Positions 17,359 through 49,370 of a stretch of DNA of 53,425 nt are shown here, one piece after another (position 1 is the first letter of the stretch; the number at the start of each line of letters is the position of its first letter). A model generated the notes under the pieces. That model had not been told where the DNA came from and searched no databases. It was given only the letters and a program-made list of their open reading frames with translations. The position numbers and the translations under genes are program-made. This DNA is from Escherichia phage vB_EcoS-640R1. The DNA lies in the sequence record ON470612; one strand, given 5' to 3'.

Positions 17359-17926
17359 TATCGCGCCCTCAACAATGAGTTTTGTGATGCGGTGCCTGGT
17401 GCCTCCAGGTGACGTTAACCAGTTAACAATTAACGCCGGATACAGAGAATCCACCCATAACACTGTTTTTGGTTTTAACTGTTCCGCGTGCGCTTAGCCG
17501 CATTCACCGCATCACAAAATTCACTTTAAAAAGGGCGGCAGAGCAGTCACGGAGTAAAACTGATACCGCCAAACGTCACCAGAAAATTGATAACAGAGGG
17601 CGTTGCAGTGGGGTTGTCACTTAAGCGTATGGTCAACCTGACAACCCGGTGTCCTCAACGGGGGAAGGAATAACCCCGCCATACTTACCGCCGCGCCATT
17701 TCGCGGATTGCCACAACCGGAAGCGCACGGTCGACGAAAATTTAACGACAGGCTATCTATGAACCAGCTACCTCGCCGTGCGCTTTCGCGTTATGGCCTG
17801 ACTTTTCAGGGAAATATCCTTTCAGTAAACTGTCAGTGCCGGATGCTCACCCGTGTCCGGCGCACGCACTCCACCTCACCCGTGGAGAACTCCTTAATTA
17901 CCAACCTTAGCTTCGTTGGTTATCTA

Positions 17927-18869: not shown

Positions 18870-19508
18870 TTAAATATCTTGTTGAATTTTAAAGCATACG
18901 CCCAATATGCAAGATAGATCATCCAGCATAATTGAAGGGTAGCGAGGATTCGTGGGGACTAAAAGAATATCCGGCCCTTCTATCTCCAGTTTACGAATGA
19001 CAGGTGTTGTGGTCCCTTTGGGTAAGGCAAGGACAATATTTCCTGGTTGTACGGTTCGATCGGGATCAACAAAAACTGTTGAACCATTTGGGATGGAAAC
19101 TCCCCCACCAGATGTTGACATACTGTCACTCTCTAGAACAACTGCAAAGGTATTGACCGGGATTTCTCCGACAAGCTGCACACAAGAGGTTATTGAGGAA
19201 TTTTTCATATAATCACTCCAGCTTGCTGCCTGCTGAAGTGATAGTAGCGGAACCGTTTTTATCGGCGGTAAAGATAGATCAAGCGAATCACCTGTATTTA
19301 ACTCTCCTCCATTAAGAAGCCAATTTTCGTTTACTTTCAATATTTTTGCCAGTGAACTTATGTAACGCGAGGACGGCGCTCCTCCACCGTTCATCCATTG
19401 ACTTACGGAGCCTTTTGATGCGCCAGTGCCATTGACAAGGTCTTTGCCTTTCAGGTTTAGCGCATGCATACGTTGGGTTATGCGTTCAGATATAGTTTGC
19501 TTGCTCAT
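18870..19508 (-). CDS. cI: CI-like prophage repressor (HTH plus S24 LexA-type peptidase domain)
   Basis: 212-aa ORF with N-terminal HTH (ISERITQRMHALNLKGKDLVNGTGASKGSVSQWMNG) and C-terminal autocleavage domain; divergent from the cro-like gene. Confidence 0.85.
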   Translation of the reverse strand: MSKQTISERITQRMHALNLKGKDLVNGTGASKGSVSQWMNGGGAPSSRYISSLAKILKVNENWLLNGGELNTGDSLDLSLPPIKTVPLLSLQQAASWSDYMKNSSITSCVQLVGEIPVNTFAVVLESDSMSTSGGGVSIPNGSTVFVDPDRTVQPGNIVLALPKGTTTPVIRKLEIEGPDILLVPTNPRYPSIMLDDLSCILGVCFKIQQDI

Positions 19509-19599
19509 GTTTTGATTTTAAAACACAGATGGTTTTGTTTCTTGACTTTCTTTGGTTTTGATTATTAAACTTTTGACGTTCAGTTTTATGGAGCGACTC
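19509..19599. promoter_or_regulatory. Putative OR/pR/pRM divergent control region
   Basis: Three copies of GTTTTG(A/T)TT, TTTAAAA palindrome, TTGACT -35 then a TATTAA-like -10 ahead of cro. Confidence 0.45.
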
Positions 19600-19842
19600 A
19601 TGAAAAAATCAGAAGTATTAGGCTATTTTGGCGGAGTTGTTAAAACAGCCGCAGCTCTAGGAACGTCAAAAACCACAGTCAGCATGTGGGGGGAAGAGGT
19701 TCCGTGGAAATGGGCGTTGCTAATTCAGGCAGTCACTGCCGGGGCGCTCAAATATGAGTTACACATACCGACGGTTGTCATTCCCGGTTCTGATCATAAT
19801 CCGCCTTCTAACCAAGGGGGGATTCATGAAAATCAAGCATGA
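19600..19842 (+). CDS. Cro-like HTH regulator, YdaS family
   Basis: MKKSEVLGYFGGVVKTAAALGTSKTTVSMWGEEVPWKWALLIQAVTAGALK matches the YdaS/Cro-like pattern; GGAG upstream; start at internal ATG of track ORF. Confidence 0.7.
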   Translation: MKKSEVLGYFGGVVKTAAALGTSKTTVSMWGEEVPWKWALLIQAVTAGALKYELHIPTVVIPGSDHNPPSNQGGIHENQA

Positions 19843-20251
19843 ACACATCCGCATGGCGATGAATGCCTGGGCGCATCCGGACGGCGAAAAAGTACCGGCT
19901 GCGAAAATTACCAAAGCGTATTTCGAGCTGGGAATGACGTTCCCGGAACTGTATGACGACAGCCATCCGGAAGCCCTGGCTCGCAATACCCAGAAAATTT
20001 TCCGCTGGGTGGAGAAAGACACCCCTGATGCAGTTGAAAAAATTCAGGCGTTGTTACCAGCGATCGAAAAGGCAATGCCACCTTTGCTGGTGGCCAGAAT
20101 GCGCAGCCACAGTTCAGCTTATTTTCGGGAGTTGGTGGAGACGCGGGAGCGACTGGTGAGAGACGCTGATGATTTTGTCGCAGTGGCAATCGCCGGTTTC
20201 AATCAGATGAACCGTGGTGGCCCGGCAGGAAATGCTGTGGCAGTACATTGA
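19826..20251 (+). CDS. YdaT-like regulatory protein (cII-position)
   Basis: MKIKHEHIRMAMNAWAHPDGEK...; strong AAGGGGGG Shine-Dalgarno; follows the cro-like gene as ydaT does in Rac. Confidence 0.6.
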   Translation: MKIKHEHIRMAMNAWAHPDGEKVPAAKITKAYFELGMTFPELYDDSHPEALARNTQKIFRWVEKDTPDAVEKIQALLPAIEKAMPPLLVARMRSHSSAYFRELVETRERLVRDADDFVAVAIAGFNQMNRGGPAGNAVAVH

Positions 20252-20322
20252 CTGACAATAGTCATATCGAATCGCTTCCGGCAACTCGTGAGTAAAAAGA
20301 TTCGGTATCAGAAGAGGTGAGT

Positions 20323-21393
20323 ATGGCTAACGCCTGGCTCAGATTATGGCATGACATGCCAAATGACCCTAAGTGGCGAACAATTGCCAGGGTGTCAGGG
20401 CAGCCAATTGCAACAGTGATGGCAGTGTATATCCACCTCCTGGTGAGCGCGTCACGAAATGTCACGCGAGGTCACATTGATGTCACGACAGAAGATTTGG
20501 CAAGTGCGCTCGACGTGACAGAAGAGGTAATTGATTCAATTTTGCAGACGATGCAGGGGCGGGTACTTGATGGTGATTTAATCACTGGATGGGAAAAACG
20601 CCAGGTGCTGAAAGAGGACAACGGCAATATTTCGCAAACCGCAAAATCTCCGGCAGAGCGCAAGAGGGCGCAGCGAGAGAGGGAAAGAAAGCGGGAACAA
20701 AATGGCGATTGTCACGGCGAGTCACGAAATGTCACGCACATGTCACGACGAGTCACGACAGATAAAGATACAGATAAAGATACAGATCAAGAAGATCAAA
20801 ACACTATGGTCCATGGCGTAAAAAACGCCACGAACCAGGCAGGGGATGTTCAGACCGTCACTCCTGGCCAGCCCGCAGGCACGACACCGGAAGCCGATTC
20901 AGCGTATGCGCTGAAAGCCGATTCGGGCGCTGTGCAGCAGGTGATGACCGCAAGGCAGGAGCAATCACACCAACTTCAGCAGCCTGAAGCCGATTCCGCC
21001 ATTCAGCGGGAAGCCGATCGGGTAGTCCCGGAAAACACCGGGCAGCCTGTGGGACGAGTGGATTATCCTGATGTGTTCGAACAGGTCTGGCGGGAATACC
21101 CGTTGCGTGCCGGGGCAAACCCGAAGAAATCCGCTTTCAGTGCCTGGAAAGCCAGATTACGCGAGGGGGTGCCACCAGAGGCCATGCTGGATGGCGTGAG
21201 GCGTTACGCAAGATACCTTGCGGCTACCGGGAAAACGGGAACGGAATTTGTTCAGCGAGCGACGACGTTTTTTGGACCGGACCGGAATTTTGAAAACCCC
21301 TGGCTGCTCCCGGTAAGCGGCACGAACAACCAGCGTTGTGTGAATCATATTTCTGAACCGGATAACGAAATTCCGCCGGGCTTCAGGGGGTAA
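20323..21393 (+). CDS. Phage replication initiation protein (O-like), contains origin iterons
   Basis: N-terminal replisome-organiser-like region; iteron clusters and AT-rich tract inside the gene; ATG with AGAGGTGA upstream (track ORF starts at GTG 20317). Confidence 0.65.
   Translation: MANAWLRLWHDMPNDPKWRTIARVSGQPIATVMAVYIHLLVSASRNVTRGHIDVTTEDLASALDVTEEVIDSILQTMQGRVLDGDLITGWEKRQVLKEDNGNISQTAKSPAERKRAQRERERKREQNGDCHGESRNVTHMSRRVTTDKDTDKDTDQEDQNTMVHGVKNATNQAGDVQTVTPGQPAGTTPEADSAYALKADSGAVQQVMTARQEQSHQLQQPEADSAIQREADRVVPENTGQPVGRVDYPDVFEQVWREYPLRAGANPKKSAFSAWKARLREGVPPEAMLDGVRRYARYLAATGKTGTEFVQRATTFFGPDRNFENPWLLPVSGTNNQRCVNHISEPDNEIPPGFRG
20451..20800. repeat. Putative phage replication origin: two GTCACG iteron clusters plus AT-rich repeat
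   Basis: GTCAC(G/A) repeated at 20451, 20461, 20471, 20482 and at 20711, 20721, 20731, 20742, 20752, followed by GATAAAGATACA x2 and an AT-rich stretch. Confidence 0.6.
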
Positions 21394-21433: not shown

Positions 21434-21856
21434 GTGGCAAAAGTTTTTACACAAGAAGAGCGGGAAAAAATTAAAGGACAGGTTCTTGAACTCGTACGCC
21501 AGAGTGGGCGCGAGACGTTACGACAACTGGAAGCTAAAACTGGGGCAACAAGATATCTGATGAGCGTTCTGGCCAGAGAGCTGGTTGCCAGTGGCGATGT
21601 ATACAATTCTGGCTACGGGTTATTCCCGTCTGAACAGGCTCGTAAAGACTGGCAAAATGCCCGCAAAAAATTATCGAGGGCAAAGCTGAAGAAACCGGTT
21701 GTGGTTGATCCGGACCTTATCTGGTCGTTACCTGACGGAGAAATACGTCGCTACGACAGTCGCCTAAACATAATCTGTCGCGAGTGCCGGAAGAGTGAAG
21801 CTATGCAGCGTGTACTGGCTTTCTATCAGGGTAATTTTCAGGAGGCGGTACTGTGA
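21434..21856 (+). CDS. Hypothetical phage replication-region protein (140 aa)
   Basis: GTG start 3 nt after AGGAGGG; sits where P/helicase-loader genes lie but not recognisable as such. Confidence 0.45.
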   Translation: MAKVFTQEEREKIKGQVLELVRQSGRETLRQLEAKTGATRYLMSVLARELVASGDVYNSGYGLFPSEQARKDWQNARKKLSRAKLKKPVVVDPDLIWSLPDGEIRRYDSRLNIICRECRKSEAMQRVLAFYQGNFQEAVL

Positions 21857-21913
21857 GTGAAATTAGCTATCAGGCTTCAATTACCGCTGGCATTCGCATC
21901 AAAGGAGAGGAGC

Positions 21914-22270
21914 ATGGAAATAAAACCAGAGGATGAGTTAAGCAATATCGTTTTATTTCCGGTAAAAGAGGATGACCCTCGTAATCAGGTTAATTTTCTT
22001 TATGAGCCATCGGAAAGACCATATTGTCATCACGCCTCTGTCCGGGTTGACGAAAAAGAGCGTCAGGTCCGCTGTAAAATCTGCGGTGCAGTTGTGGAGC
22101 CATTTGACTGGATGCTCTCTGTGGCGAAAAGAGAAACCAGACTGGCAGATGATGTAAGGCTCTTGCGTCAGGAGGAGCGGGAAAGGCGAAAAAATATAGA
22201 AAAGCTAATTCAGATTGAGCGTAACGCGAAAGCGCGGATACGCAGGGCGACAAAATCCAGAACTGAATAA
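21914..22270 (+). CDS. Hypothetical phage protein with CHH...CKICG metal-binding-like motif
   Basis: Start at ATG preceded by AGGAGAGGAG (internal to track ORF 21857..22270). Confidence 0.5.
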   Translation: MEIKPEDELSNIVLFPVKEDDPRNQVNFLYEPSERPYCHHASVRVDEKERQVRCKICGAVVEPFDWMLSVAKRETRLADDVRLLRQEERERRKNIEKLIQIERNAKARIRRATKSRTE

Positions 22271-23378: not shown

Positions 23379-23637
23379 ATACAGCGAACGCCATTGGTTT
23401 AGTTGGATATTTACTGTGCCGGACAAAAACGGTTTGCGGGGAAATCTTAGTTAAGTAGAATGACTGCGGGTGCTTGAGGCTATCTGTCTCAGGCATGAAC
23501 ACCAAAAGGCAGATAGAGAAAAGCCCCAGTTAACATTACGCGTCCTGCAAGACGCTTAACATTAATCTGAGGCTCAATCTATGAACGGCAAATCTAGGTT
23601 AGCCTCTTACGTGCCGAAAGGCAAGGAGAAGCAGGCT

Positions 23638-23793
23638 ATGAAGCAGCAAAAGGCGATGTTAATCGCCCTGATCGTCATCTGTTTAACCGTCATTGTGACG
23701 GCACTGGTAACGAGGAAAGACCTCTGCGAGGTACGAATCCGAACCGGCCAGACGGAGGTCGCTGTCTTCACAGCTTACGAACCTGAGGAGTAA
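23638..23793 (+). CDS. hokD: Hok/Gef-family type I toxin (HokD/RelF-like)
   Basis: MKQQKAMLIALIVICLTVIVTALVTRKDLCEVRIRTGQTEVAVFTAYEPEE: single TM plus conserved Cys/Tyr periplasmic tail typical of Hok; in-frame upstream extension from 23581; terminator downstream. Confidence 0.85.
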   Translation: MKQQKAMLIALIVICLTVIVTALVTRKDLCEVRIRTGQTEVAVFTAYEPEE

Positions 23794-26641: not shown

Positions 26642-26717
26642 GGCCCTTTAGCTCAGTGGTGAGAGCGAGCGACTCATAATCGCCAGGTCGCTGGTTCAAA
26701 TCCAGCAAGGGCCACCA
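26642..26717 (+). tRNA. tRNA with CAU anticodon (Met/Ile2-type, ileZ-like phage tRNA)
   Basis: 76 nt cloverleaf: 7-bp acceptor GGCCCTT/AAGGGCC, D-arm GCTC-AGTGGTGA-GAGC, anticodon loop CTCATAA, T-arm GCTGG-TTCAAAT-CCAGC, 3' CCA. Confidence 0.85.
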
Positions 26718-27054: not shown

Positions 27055-27258
27055 TGATGATTGTCTGGCTGCCGGAGAATTTGTTAAAAATTACATCGCA
27101 TGGTGAATCCCCCTCAGCGGCGGGGCATCTGGCAAAGTGTATGATCCAGAGAACATGCAAATTCAGTAGACAGGCTGAATTTACCGGGAGGCCCCTGGCA
27201 CCATGCGACAGACAGAAATTAGGCTATACTTCAGCCCCTCTCCGGAGGGGCTTTTCTG
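27055..27258 (+). ncRNA. Candidate structured RNA element, copy 1, ends in intrinsic terminator
   Basis: Shares conserved blocks with copy 2 (TTGTCTGGC..TTTGTTAAAAA..CGCATGGTGAATCCCCCT; GAATT(T/C)ACCGGGAGGC..GGCACCATGC; AGCCCCTCTCCGGAGGGGCT + T-run); alternative pairings of GCATGGTGAAT with ATT(T/C)ACC or CACCATG. Confidence 0.4.
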
Positions 27259-27445
27259 TGCAGGATGTGTCACAGTTTCCTGAATTCTGAGTACTGTCCT
27301 GTTACTCAGGGTGCTATATTTTCTGACGTGATGAAAGTCTGCCGGAAGGCGGAACGTATCGGAAATGACCCAGTAGAGAAAACGTTGACTCAGATACCGA
27401 TGCTGAGTTACCGGGAAACCGGCATCACATGACCGCTATCCTTCC

Positions 27446-27525: not shown

Positions 27526-27720
27526 ATTATTGTCTGGCCGGCGGGAAGTTTGTTAAAAAATTTCGCATGGTGAATCCCCCTGTGCGGAGGGGTAATCAGC
27601 GAGTAGGTATATGGGATAATCGCGGATTCAGGTGCTGGTACTGAATTCACCGGGAGGCACCCGGCACCATGCAATGGCACATAGCGCCACTCTCCAGCCC
27701 CTCTCCGGAGGGGCTGTTTA
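27526..27720 (+). ncRNA. Candidate structured RNA element, copy 2, ends in terminator-like hairpin
   Basis: Same conserved 5', 3' and hairpin blocks as copy 1, with a divergent central segment. Confidence 0.4.
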
Positions 27721-27750
27721 TATTGATTTTGTCAGATGTGAGTAAACTCC

Positions 27751-48800: not shown

Positions 48801-49370
48801 AATCCTCCGGTATTTTCCCTGACACCGGACGGGCGGCTGACGGCGAAAAATGCCGATATCAGCGGTAACGTGAATGCGAACGCCGGGACGCTCAACAACG
48901 TCACGATTAACGAGAACTGTCGGGTTCTGGGAAAACTGTCCGCCAACCAGATTGAAGGCGATCTCGTTAAAACAGTGGGCAAAGCTTTCCCCCGGGACTC
49001 CCGTGCACCGGAACGGTGGCCATCAGGGACCATCACCGTCAGGGTTTATGACGATCAGCCGTTTGACCGGCAGATTGTTATTCCGGCGGTGGCATTCAGC
49101 GGCGCTAAACATGAGCGGGAGAATAACGATATTTATTCGTCATGCCGCCTGATAGTACGGAAAAACGGTGCTGAAATTTATAACCGTACCGCGCTGGATA
49201 ATACGCTGATTTACAGTGGTGTTATTGATATGCCTGCCGGTCACGGTCACATGACACTGGAGTTTTCGGTGTCAGCATGGCTGGTAAATAACTGGTATCC
49301 CACAGCCAGTATCAGCGATTTGCTGGTTGTGGTGATGAAGAAAGCCACTGCAGGCATCACGATTAGCTGA
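45891..49370 (+). CDS. Host specificity protein J (central tail fibre)
   Basis: 1159-aa [23 protein letters not shown]...; lambda-J-like throughout with fibronectin-like repeats. Confidence 0.92.

Follow-up and report, generated by a model that had tools for sequence, protein, structure and literature searches.

A likely replication origin with two phased iteron arrays inside the initiator gene of Escherichia phage vB_EcoS-640R1

The sequence of Escherichia phage vB_EcoS-640R1 (ON470612) was analyzed as a single stretch of 53,425 nucleotides, referred to here as the window. On its plus strand, the list of open reading frames (ORFs) contains a gene at 20323-21393 whose ATG (20323) follows a GAGG (20314-20317) and which encodes a protein of 356 amino acids named phage replisome organizer by NCBI. 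The same ORF is an annotated coding sequence (CDS) in the 100% identical Escherichia phage vB_EcoS-813R8. Two arrays of short direct repeats and an A+T-rich tract all lie within this ORF, and our analysis points to the segment 20451-20837 as the likely vegetative replication origin of a Qin/DicB-type lambdoid prophage, placed inside the gene for its own initiator.

The repeats share the core GTCAC(G/A). Array 1 (20451-20487, plus strand) consists of four cores that start at 20451, 20461, 20471 and 20482, with start-to-start spacings of 10, 10 and 11 bp. Array 2 (20711-20757, plus strand) consists of five GTCACG cores that start at 20711, 20721, 20731, 20742 and 20752, with spacings of 10, 10, 11 and 10 bp. 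A single core on the minus strand (20514-20519, CGTGAC on the plus strand) is found 27 bp past array 1. An earlier reading made from the sequence alone, hereafter the sequence-only reading, had proposed nine GTCAC(G/A) repeats in two clusters within the coding sequence, and this count was borne out: a repeat finder and Tandem Repeats Finder both recover the arrays, and the inverted core is a tenth copy that the reading did not contain. Over the full window the motif shows no enrichment, with 46 matches to GTCACR on the two strands versus 51 in shuffled sequences. What is exceptional is the presence of 10 copies within 307 bp, where 0.21 would be expected (Poisson P = 3e-14). No second cluster of the core and no alternative origin-like region was seen within the 53-kb window. 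The sole other site in the window with two cores near each other, GTCACGGTCACA at 49240-49251, is far from the arrays; its two neighboring cores are 6 bp apart, and the pair is probably due to chance.

The two arrays encode different parts of the protein. Array 1 specifies amino acids 43-56, which form the H1-beta1-H2 connection of a winged helix, and array 2 specifies amino acids 130-145, which together with the product of the adjoining A+T-rich tract make up the start of a disordered linker rich in D, K, T and E. The nine cores start at reading-frame positions 2, 0, 1 and 0 in array 1 and 1, 2, 0, 2 and 0 in array 2, and the peptides that they encode (SR, VT, GH and CH) differ. Being spread over the reading frames and encoding different peptides, the cores do not constitute a repeated peptide motif. 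Across 27 genes of the GTCAC type, 200 cores are distributed over the three frames as 60, 84 and 56, and are spaced by 10 bp in 113 cases, by 11 bp in 32 and by 9 bp in one. The sequence-only reading had named as part of its own refutation a peptide motif repeated without conserved spacing; the repeats instead occupy three frames at a spacing of 10 or 11 bp.

Synonymous sites tell the same story more directly. In a codon alignment of 24 GTCAC-type genes, whose N-terminal domains are 64-96% identical in amino acid sequence, we compared four-fold synonymous sites at conserved residues, taking the sites outside cores from the rest of amino acids 1-125. At the eight sites inside cores, the majority base is present in 98% of sequences and the mean entropy is 0.125 bit, versus 45% and 1.73 bit at the 21 sites outside, not one of which falls below 0.3 bit (Mann-Whitney U = 0, P = 2e-5). 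The pattern extends over genomes of 33% to 69% G+C. At the inverted core, the codon for V65 is GTG in all 21 sequences that possess V65. Judged from these alignments, selection acts on the repeats as DNA, apart from the protein that they encode.

Immediately past array 2 is an A+T- and purine-rich tract (20758-20806), a candidate DNA-unwinding element indicated by Tandem Repeats Finder and by the composition profile. Tandem Repeats Finder describes 20758-20792, which adjoins array 2, as 2.9 copies of ACAGATAAAGAT with 95% matches. The 45 nucleotides past the last core are 71% A+T, versus 46% for the whole gene, and 76% purine on the coding strand; in the composition profile, the G+C fraction falls to 0.35 at 20760-20819. 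The expectation that the second cluster would be followed by a short repeat and then an AT-rich stretch was thus correct. Directly to the right of the tract is an inverted repeat, I12, with 13-nucleotide arms and a 5-nucleotide loop (20807-20837). Folded as single-stranded DNA, 20807-20837 reaches -10.9 kcal/mol on the minus strand (z = -5.5) and -8.7 kcal/mol on the plus strand (z = -3.1). In its position this inverted repeat resembles the lambda palindrome. Two GATC (Dam) sites, at 20785-20788 and 20794-20797, are 9 bp apart inside the A+T-rich tract, and GATC also occurs at the end of the tract in Rac ydaU and in Aeromonas phage pAEv1818. A role for Dam or SeqA in the control of the origin is possible.

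The conservation of this layout was examined in 60 loci with the same N-terminal domain, drawn from bacterial genomes at one genome per species, and in additional loci from phage isolates. The homologs come from γ-, β- and α-proteobacterial genomes and phages, with G+C contents from 0.33 to 0.69. Phased arrays are present in 51 of the 59 full-length homologous genes, and 48 of the 59 possess two or more. Array 1 is located at approximately +116 to +160 of the gene and array 2, with two to six cores, at approximately +300 to +500, and genes of the GTCAC type often have the inverted copy at +192 (or +180). All 51 array-bearing genes have an A+T-/purine-rich repeat tract, which directly follows array 2 and occurs in variants that include (C/T)AGATAAAGATA..., CAGATACAGATAC..., TAGAGAAGA... 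and TAGAGGAGAGG... For these 51 genes, the 45 nucleotides past the last core average 65% A+T, versus 44% for the gene (Wilcoxon P = 6e-10), and 72% purine, versus 57% (Wilcoxon P = 6e-10). In none of the 59 genes was a periodic core detected in the remaining 3' portion. A G+C-rich inverted repeat tends to occupy the same place as in the window (Wilcoxon P = 3e-6). Hairpins are found about 30-60 nucleotides past the A+T tract at loci L003, L017, L048 and L011; in several relatives the loop of the hairpin is conserved (TCACTACGTTC or TTCACTTCGTTC) and the stem differs, and others have CCCCCC..GGGGGG stems.

The core itself varies by lineage and may be GTCACG, GTAACG or CGAACGC, with ACG common to all three. 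When the two arrays of a gene were classed independently, they were found to contain the identical core in 45 of 46 genes, and the single discordant gene has a mixed GTAACGC/GAAACGC unit. The arrays accompany the N-terminal domain, and the neighboring genes and C-terminal domains vary widely. In two distant genes of the GTCAC type (L055 and L057), array 1 is located at gene positions +74 to +103, in a six-amino acid insertion (LSRNVTVGH or LSRKVTIGH, approximately amino acids 28-36) between helices 2 and 3. Array 1 is there in another loop, and therefore the DNA element has been retained while its position in the protein has shifted. Among close E. coli relatives, insertions and deletions coincide exactly with the arrays, as with the extra TCHGVSR of protein variants P0003 and P0022. 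A further variant from complete E. coli genomes, the 302-amino acid P0019, has an in-frame deletion that matches approximately 20728-20880 of the window and takes out three of the five array 2 cores, the inverted repeat and all of the A+T tract; on this sequence it probably belongs to a prophage that can no longer replicate.

The protein matches phrog_3729, replication initiation protein, in PHROGs (E = 7e-257), with weaker matches to DnaD-like helicase loader and to replisome organizer families phrog_4880 (E = 7e-6) and phrog_5968 (E = 1e-4). Pfam gave no match for the whole protein at E <= 0.01. Amino acids 1-130 align with positions 1-119 of the 121 in the profile of PF09681 (Phage_rep_org_N) at E = 0.0085 and 16.5 bits, the gathering score being 23.3. 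The N-terminal domain (amino acids 1-95, encoded by 20323-20607 on the plus strand) has a winged-helix DNA-binding fold that superposes best on the N-terminal winged helix of DnaD, and it is presumed to be the reader of the iterons. The C-terminal helical domain and tail (amino acids 248-356, encoded by 21064-21393 on the plus strand) are DnaT-like. The pLDDT is above 90 for amino acids 250-320, and hhalign pairs the domain with residues 107-179 of E. coli DnaT (92.5% probability, E = 5e-7). The tail, ...SEPDNEIPPGFRG, is identical to the DnaT C terminus at 15 of 25 positions and matches positions 156-179 of the NCBIfam DnaT model (E = 7e-4), and relatives carry PF17948. A sequence search of the PDB with the initiator retrieved the DnaT tail only.

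Two other affiliations were considered and rejected. The protein is not a homolog of lambda O: PF04492 was not found with the whole protein at E <= 0.01, nor with amino acids 1-130 or 230-356 at E <= 10, and the annotation protein O in some phage records rests on gene position only. This agrees with the sequence-only reading, which had called the protein a non-lambda replication type. A Rac ydaU-type label is also inappropriate, since PF07120 (DUF1376) is matched by YdaU at E = 3e-26 but not by the window protein; BLASTP similarity to YdaU is confined to the C-terminal tail and linker. Approximately the last 20 residues (..VNHISEPDNEIPPGFRG, window 21334-21390) are nearly identical in the window protein, Rac YdaU (gene at L062:3120-3977) and host DnaT (gene at L069:2479-3018), and their N-terminal domains are unrelated. 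The order of the host dnaT-dnaC operon is also that of the phage module formed by an organizer C-terminal domain plus a DnaC-like loader (ydaU-ydaV). Shared tail and shared gene order, as read from these sequences, suggest common ancestry or domestication.

We present a model for the function of the segment in which we infer every step from what was observed, namely the anatomy of the sequence and how far it is conserved. Once the prophage is derepressed, early transcription to the right would produce the Cro-like and YdaT/CII-like proteins together with the initiator, and would pass through the origin. The DnaD-like winged helix of the initiator would bind the 6-bp GTCACG cores. Because the 10-11-bp spacing puts the cores on one face of the helix, the five sites of array 2 would support a co-oriented protein array. 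A second protein array on the four sites and one inverted site of array 1, approximately 260 bp upstream, could be an auxiliary or enhancer array or a looping partner, and array 1 may also be a site of control. With negative supercoiling and transcription as aids, the nucleoprotein complex would then melt the 71% A+T purine-rich tract, and 20758-20806 is probably where unwinding takes place. The C-terminal DnaT-like domain and tail would hold the single strand, recruit host DnaB-DnaC, or both. Throughout, the origin would have to stay translatable, with array 1 read as the winged-helix loop and array 2 and the unwinding tract read as the disordered linker.

How the initiator reaches the replicative helicase can be stated with less assurance. 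A connection between the DnaT-like domain and the host helicase-loading machinery is conceivable, and we put it forward tentatively. A bolder version, which we regard as rather doubtful, is that the initiator joins a DnaD-like origin-reading winged helix to a DnaT-like C-terminal domain and so plugs a sequence-specific origin directly into the replication-restart route by which the host loads DnaB-DnaC (DnaT/PriA type). If the protein were such a chimera, the phage could do without its own loader, the polypurine tract and neighboring hairpin would be the single-strand landing site, and the host dnaT-dnaC operon would resemble a domesticated phage module of organizer C-terminal domain plus loader.

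Several findings weigh against placing the origin at 20451-20837. Eight of the 59 relatives have no clear arrays for the three core motifs tested. The distance between array 1 and array 2 is not conserved, ranging from 202 to 350 bp from first core to first core, and so nothing points to a fixed helical phase of one array relative to the other. No residues of the N-terminal domain outside the iteron-encoded loop were found to covary with core type. The inverted repeat outscores the best control window of its own gene in only 29% of relatives; since it does not do so in 71% of genes, we retain it only as a possible part of the origin. No DnaA box TTATNCACA with one mismatch or fewer is present in 20317-21300, and a role for host DnaA is for that reason unsupported. 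The nearest such matches are at 21339 and 21445, and their total in the window is at chance level; the locus thus does not show the DnaA box beside the iterons that a DnaA-dependent plasmid-type iteron origin would have. Finally, we found no paper describing this family or its origin, GTCACG iterons or the origin of phage D3, and papers that classify the replication regions of non-lambdoid Stx phages do not discuss origins. As for the N-terminal domain, only one segment is obviously specific to a core class, and that segment is iteron-encoded. A further, speculative possibility is that the loop of the winged helix specified by array 1 helps to read the iterons, in which case the same mutations would alter both site and reader.

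The alternative that survives best, although we judge it improbable, is that the arrays are sites for the initiator or another phage protein with a mainly regulatory purpose, such as autoregulation by a roadblock within its own gene, copy-number control by handcuffing, or titration, and that replication starts elsewhere. Array 1 speaks for this explanation. It is located approximately 260 bp from the A+T tract, in the region coding for the DNA-binding domain, it has its own inverted copy, and it would be superfluous in a minimal origin made of iterons and an unwinding element. Plasmid iterons, moreover, serve control as well as initiation. Array 2 speaks against it, as it is always directly joined to an A+T/purine-rich tract that a purely regulatory site would not need. 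The 53-kb window offers neither another core cluster nor an alternative origin-like region where replication might start, and the layout matches that of proven origins within initiator genes (PMC7466680, PMC5737612, PMC8965321). A regulatory role may exist alongside origin function.

It is less probable again, to the point of being a slight chance, that the arrays are read by a different system, for example as a partition or centromere-like element, a packaging site or the target of a host factor, and are in the initiator gene by coincidence. Plasmid centromeres also hold short direct repeats at helical spacing, and the DUF977 protein encoded next door (21434-21856) is a possible DNA binder. 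Against such a coincidence, the arrays accompany the N-terminal domain across differing neighbors, DUF977 is present in only one of 53 relatives, and the type of core changes with the lineage of the N-terminal domain while the C-terminal domains differ widely. That the repeats have no function as DNA and are due to chance, slippage or a repeated peptide would suit the low complexity of the linker (DKDTDKDTD), linkers being places where repeats often gather, and the variable copy number of the core in close relatives such as P0003 and P0022, but this explanation has a negligible probability and is already refuted by the frozen synonymous sites among N-terminal domains of 64-96% identity, the placement of cores in three frames and the covariation of the two arrays, besides the 10 copies where 0.2 were expected and a layout kept from 33% to 69% G+C.

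An origin inside the initiator gene is a known arrangement, and experiments have demonstrated the logic of our model for ori-lambda, for SPP1 oriL and for TP901-1 and Tuc2009. In phage lambda, the iterons and A+T tract of ori-lambda are in the middle of gene O; protein O recognizes the iterons, each a 19-bp imperfect inverted repeat, and is able to bind single-stranded DNA as well (PMC7466680). The origins of lambda and Stx phages share with the window locus an order of initiator-binding repeats followed by an A+T- and purine-rich unwinding tract, both encoding protein, and a repeat number that varies among relatives to match insertions in the protein (PMC7466680). The window differs from lambda in its units, which are 10-11 bp, direct and built on an asymmetric 6-7-bp core, in having two arrays and in the absence of a P-like loader as the next gene. 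Lambda-type iterons of approximately 19 bp with internal dyad symmetry were accordingly rejected as a description of the GTCACG repeats. The parallel with ori-lambda drawn in the sequence-only reading is supported, with corrections. Common to both are iterons that are embedded in the initiator gene and precede an A+T tract in the direction of transcription; the 19-bp dyad iterons are not shared, and array 1 is in the region coding for the DNA-binding domain and not in the linker.

A second group of known organizers comes from Gram-positive hosts. In SPP1, gene 38 contains oriL, which is made up of AB boxes plus an unwinding element (PMC5737612), and the organizers of TP901-1 and Tuc2009 bind direct repeats in their own genes, those repeats being the origin (PMC8965321). 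SPP1 G38P with oriL, TP901-1 ORF13 and Tuc2009 Rep2009 therefore resemble the window system in that an organizer has direct repeats in its own gene beside an unwinding element; G38P has a second, distant binding site, oriR. They differ in that sequence similarity is marginal (16.5 bits versus the 23.3 cut-off), the hosts of the window system are Proteobacteria and its repeats are others, and the window protein has a DnaT-like C-terminal domain with no helicase or loader gene following. If the window protein belongs to the Gram-positive replisome organizer family at all, it is a distant member.

The genomic surroundings resemble those of ydaU in the Rac prophage of E. coli K-12, the region to which the Rac origin oriJ belongs. 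Rac YdaU shares with the window protein its neighbors, a repressor, a Cro-like YdaS and a CII-like YdaT followed by the replication gene, and a tail of the form ...PD..IPPGFRG. Although the N-terminal domains are unrelated, Rac ydaU shares AGATAAAGATACAGATAAAGAT and the AGATAAAGATA tract with the window gene, and it has four internal direct repeats like CAGATGTTCAA followed by AATAAAGATACAGATAAAGATC, which is nearly the window tract 20758-20790. It differs in its DUF1376 N-terminal domain, in its repeats and in being followed by the DnaC-like YdaV. The comparison with Rac ydaU and lambda O that the sequence-only reading proposed therefore upholds a similarity of layout and not of protein, since the initiator is related to neither and has in common with YdaU only the DnaT-like tail and the AGATAAAGATA tract. 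In Rac ydaU, the segment L062:3472-3634 (NC_000913.3 1421471-1421633) contains the four CAGATGTTCAA-like repeats, AATAAAGATACAGATAAAGATCTAAAAACAGATC and CCCCCCC..CCCCCCC/GGGGG, which is the window order of iterons, purine-A+T tract and G+C inverted repeat. By this order it is a candidate for the core of the Rac origin oriJ; a mapped position of oriJ was not found in the literature.

The host proteins E. coli DnaT and Bacillus DnaD resemble the initiator in parts, DnaT in the C-terminal domain and DnaD in the winged helix on which the N-terminal domain superposes. They differ in having no specificity for an origin sequence, and the N-terminal domain of DnaT is absent from the window protein, so the combination of a DnaD-like N-terminal domain with a DnaT-like C-terminal domain is the phage protein's own. 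Satellite phage P4 (ori and crr) and the origins of Staphylococcus aureus pathogenicity islands (SaPIs) also have initiator-binding repeats of 6-8 bp in two clusters with an A+T-rich region nearby. Their initiators are unrelated, P4 alpha being a primase-helicase and SaPI Rep a helicase, and their origins are not known to lie in the coding region of a DNA-binding domain.

Upstream of the gene are an S24 repressor gene on the minus strand (18870-19508), a gene annotated DicC that resembles P22 Cro (19552-19842), and a gene of YdaT/CII type (19754-20251), neighbors that the sequence-only reading had called Rac-like YdaS/YdaT. A scan for promoters and terminators gave matches at consensus level only, at chance frequency; a pR-like site at 19542-19571 is plausible. 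Downstream are a DUF977 gene (21434-21856), whose product is annotated LygF and matches the PHROG Ren-like exclusion protein, and a zinc-ribbon gene (21857-22270), in the place where relatives have a helicase loader or helicase; no helicase or loader gene follows the initiator in this phage. The next gene was examined in 53 relatives, the families being counted separately so that one gene may match more than one: it is lambda-P-like in 11, DnaB in five, IstB/DnaC-like in five, a Toprim primase-helicase in two and G39P-like in one, and roughly two fifths of the 53 have a next gene of helicase or loader type. Because helicase and loader genes often follow in relatives, the gene can be said to occupy the initiator slot of phage replication modules. 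Rfam and ARAGORN detect DicF RNA at 17533-17584 (minus strand) and, on the plus strand, the sok antitoxin RNA of a hok/sok-type locus at 23468-23643, tRNA-Met at 26642-26717 and two copies of the small RNA STnc100 at 27068-27261 and 27537-27725. These RNAs, together with homologs of DicB, DicC, YdfC, YdfD and YdfU in the matching phage record, identify the element as a Qin/DicB-type lambdoid prophage.

The candidate origin segment is very common in E. coli. Of 5426 complete E. coli genomes, 2036 have the 400-bp segment, and the N-terminal domain family comprises 911 clusters at 50% identity (E <= 1e-10) in Proteobacteria and beyond, although no more than 24 of 50,697 phage genome records carry it. 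Most annotations of the gene read hypothetical protein or replisome organizer, and no origin is marked. Origins of this kind are known from ori-lambda, SPP1 oriL and the TP901-1 type, but we found no published description of one for this initiator family, for which the window segment is a candidate. For prophages of E. coli, Shigella and the Stx type that have non-lambda replication modules, a defined origin would provide a testable cis element, as well as a marker separating replication-competent from decayed prophages, for which P0019 is an example. The three natural specificity classes (GTCACG, GTAACG and CGAACGC) offer a case of initiator-iteron co-evolution under the constraint of coding for the initiator, and through this family the role of the C-terminal domain and tail of DnaT, still poorly understood, could be approached. 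A search of plasmids for a natural mini-replicon was uninformative, returning two 50.9-kb circular sequences from P. aeruginosa (L070, CP137943.1, and CP124671.1) and otherwise only large plasmids into which a prophage is inserted. These two deposited plasmids are D3-like phage genomes with the module, and in both, as in phage phi1 (L064), the organizer gene and its iterons are unannotated and appear as a gap between CDSs.

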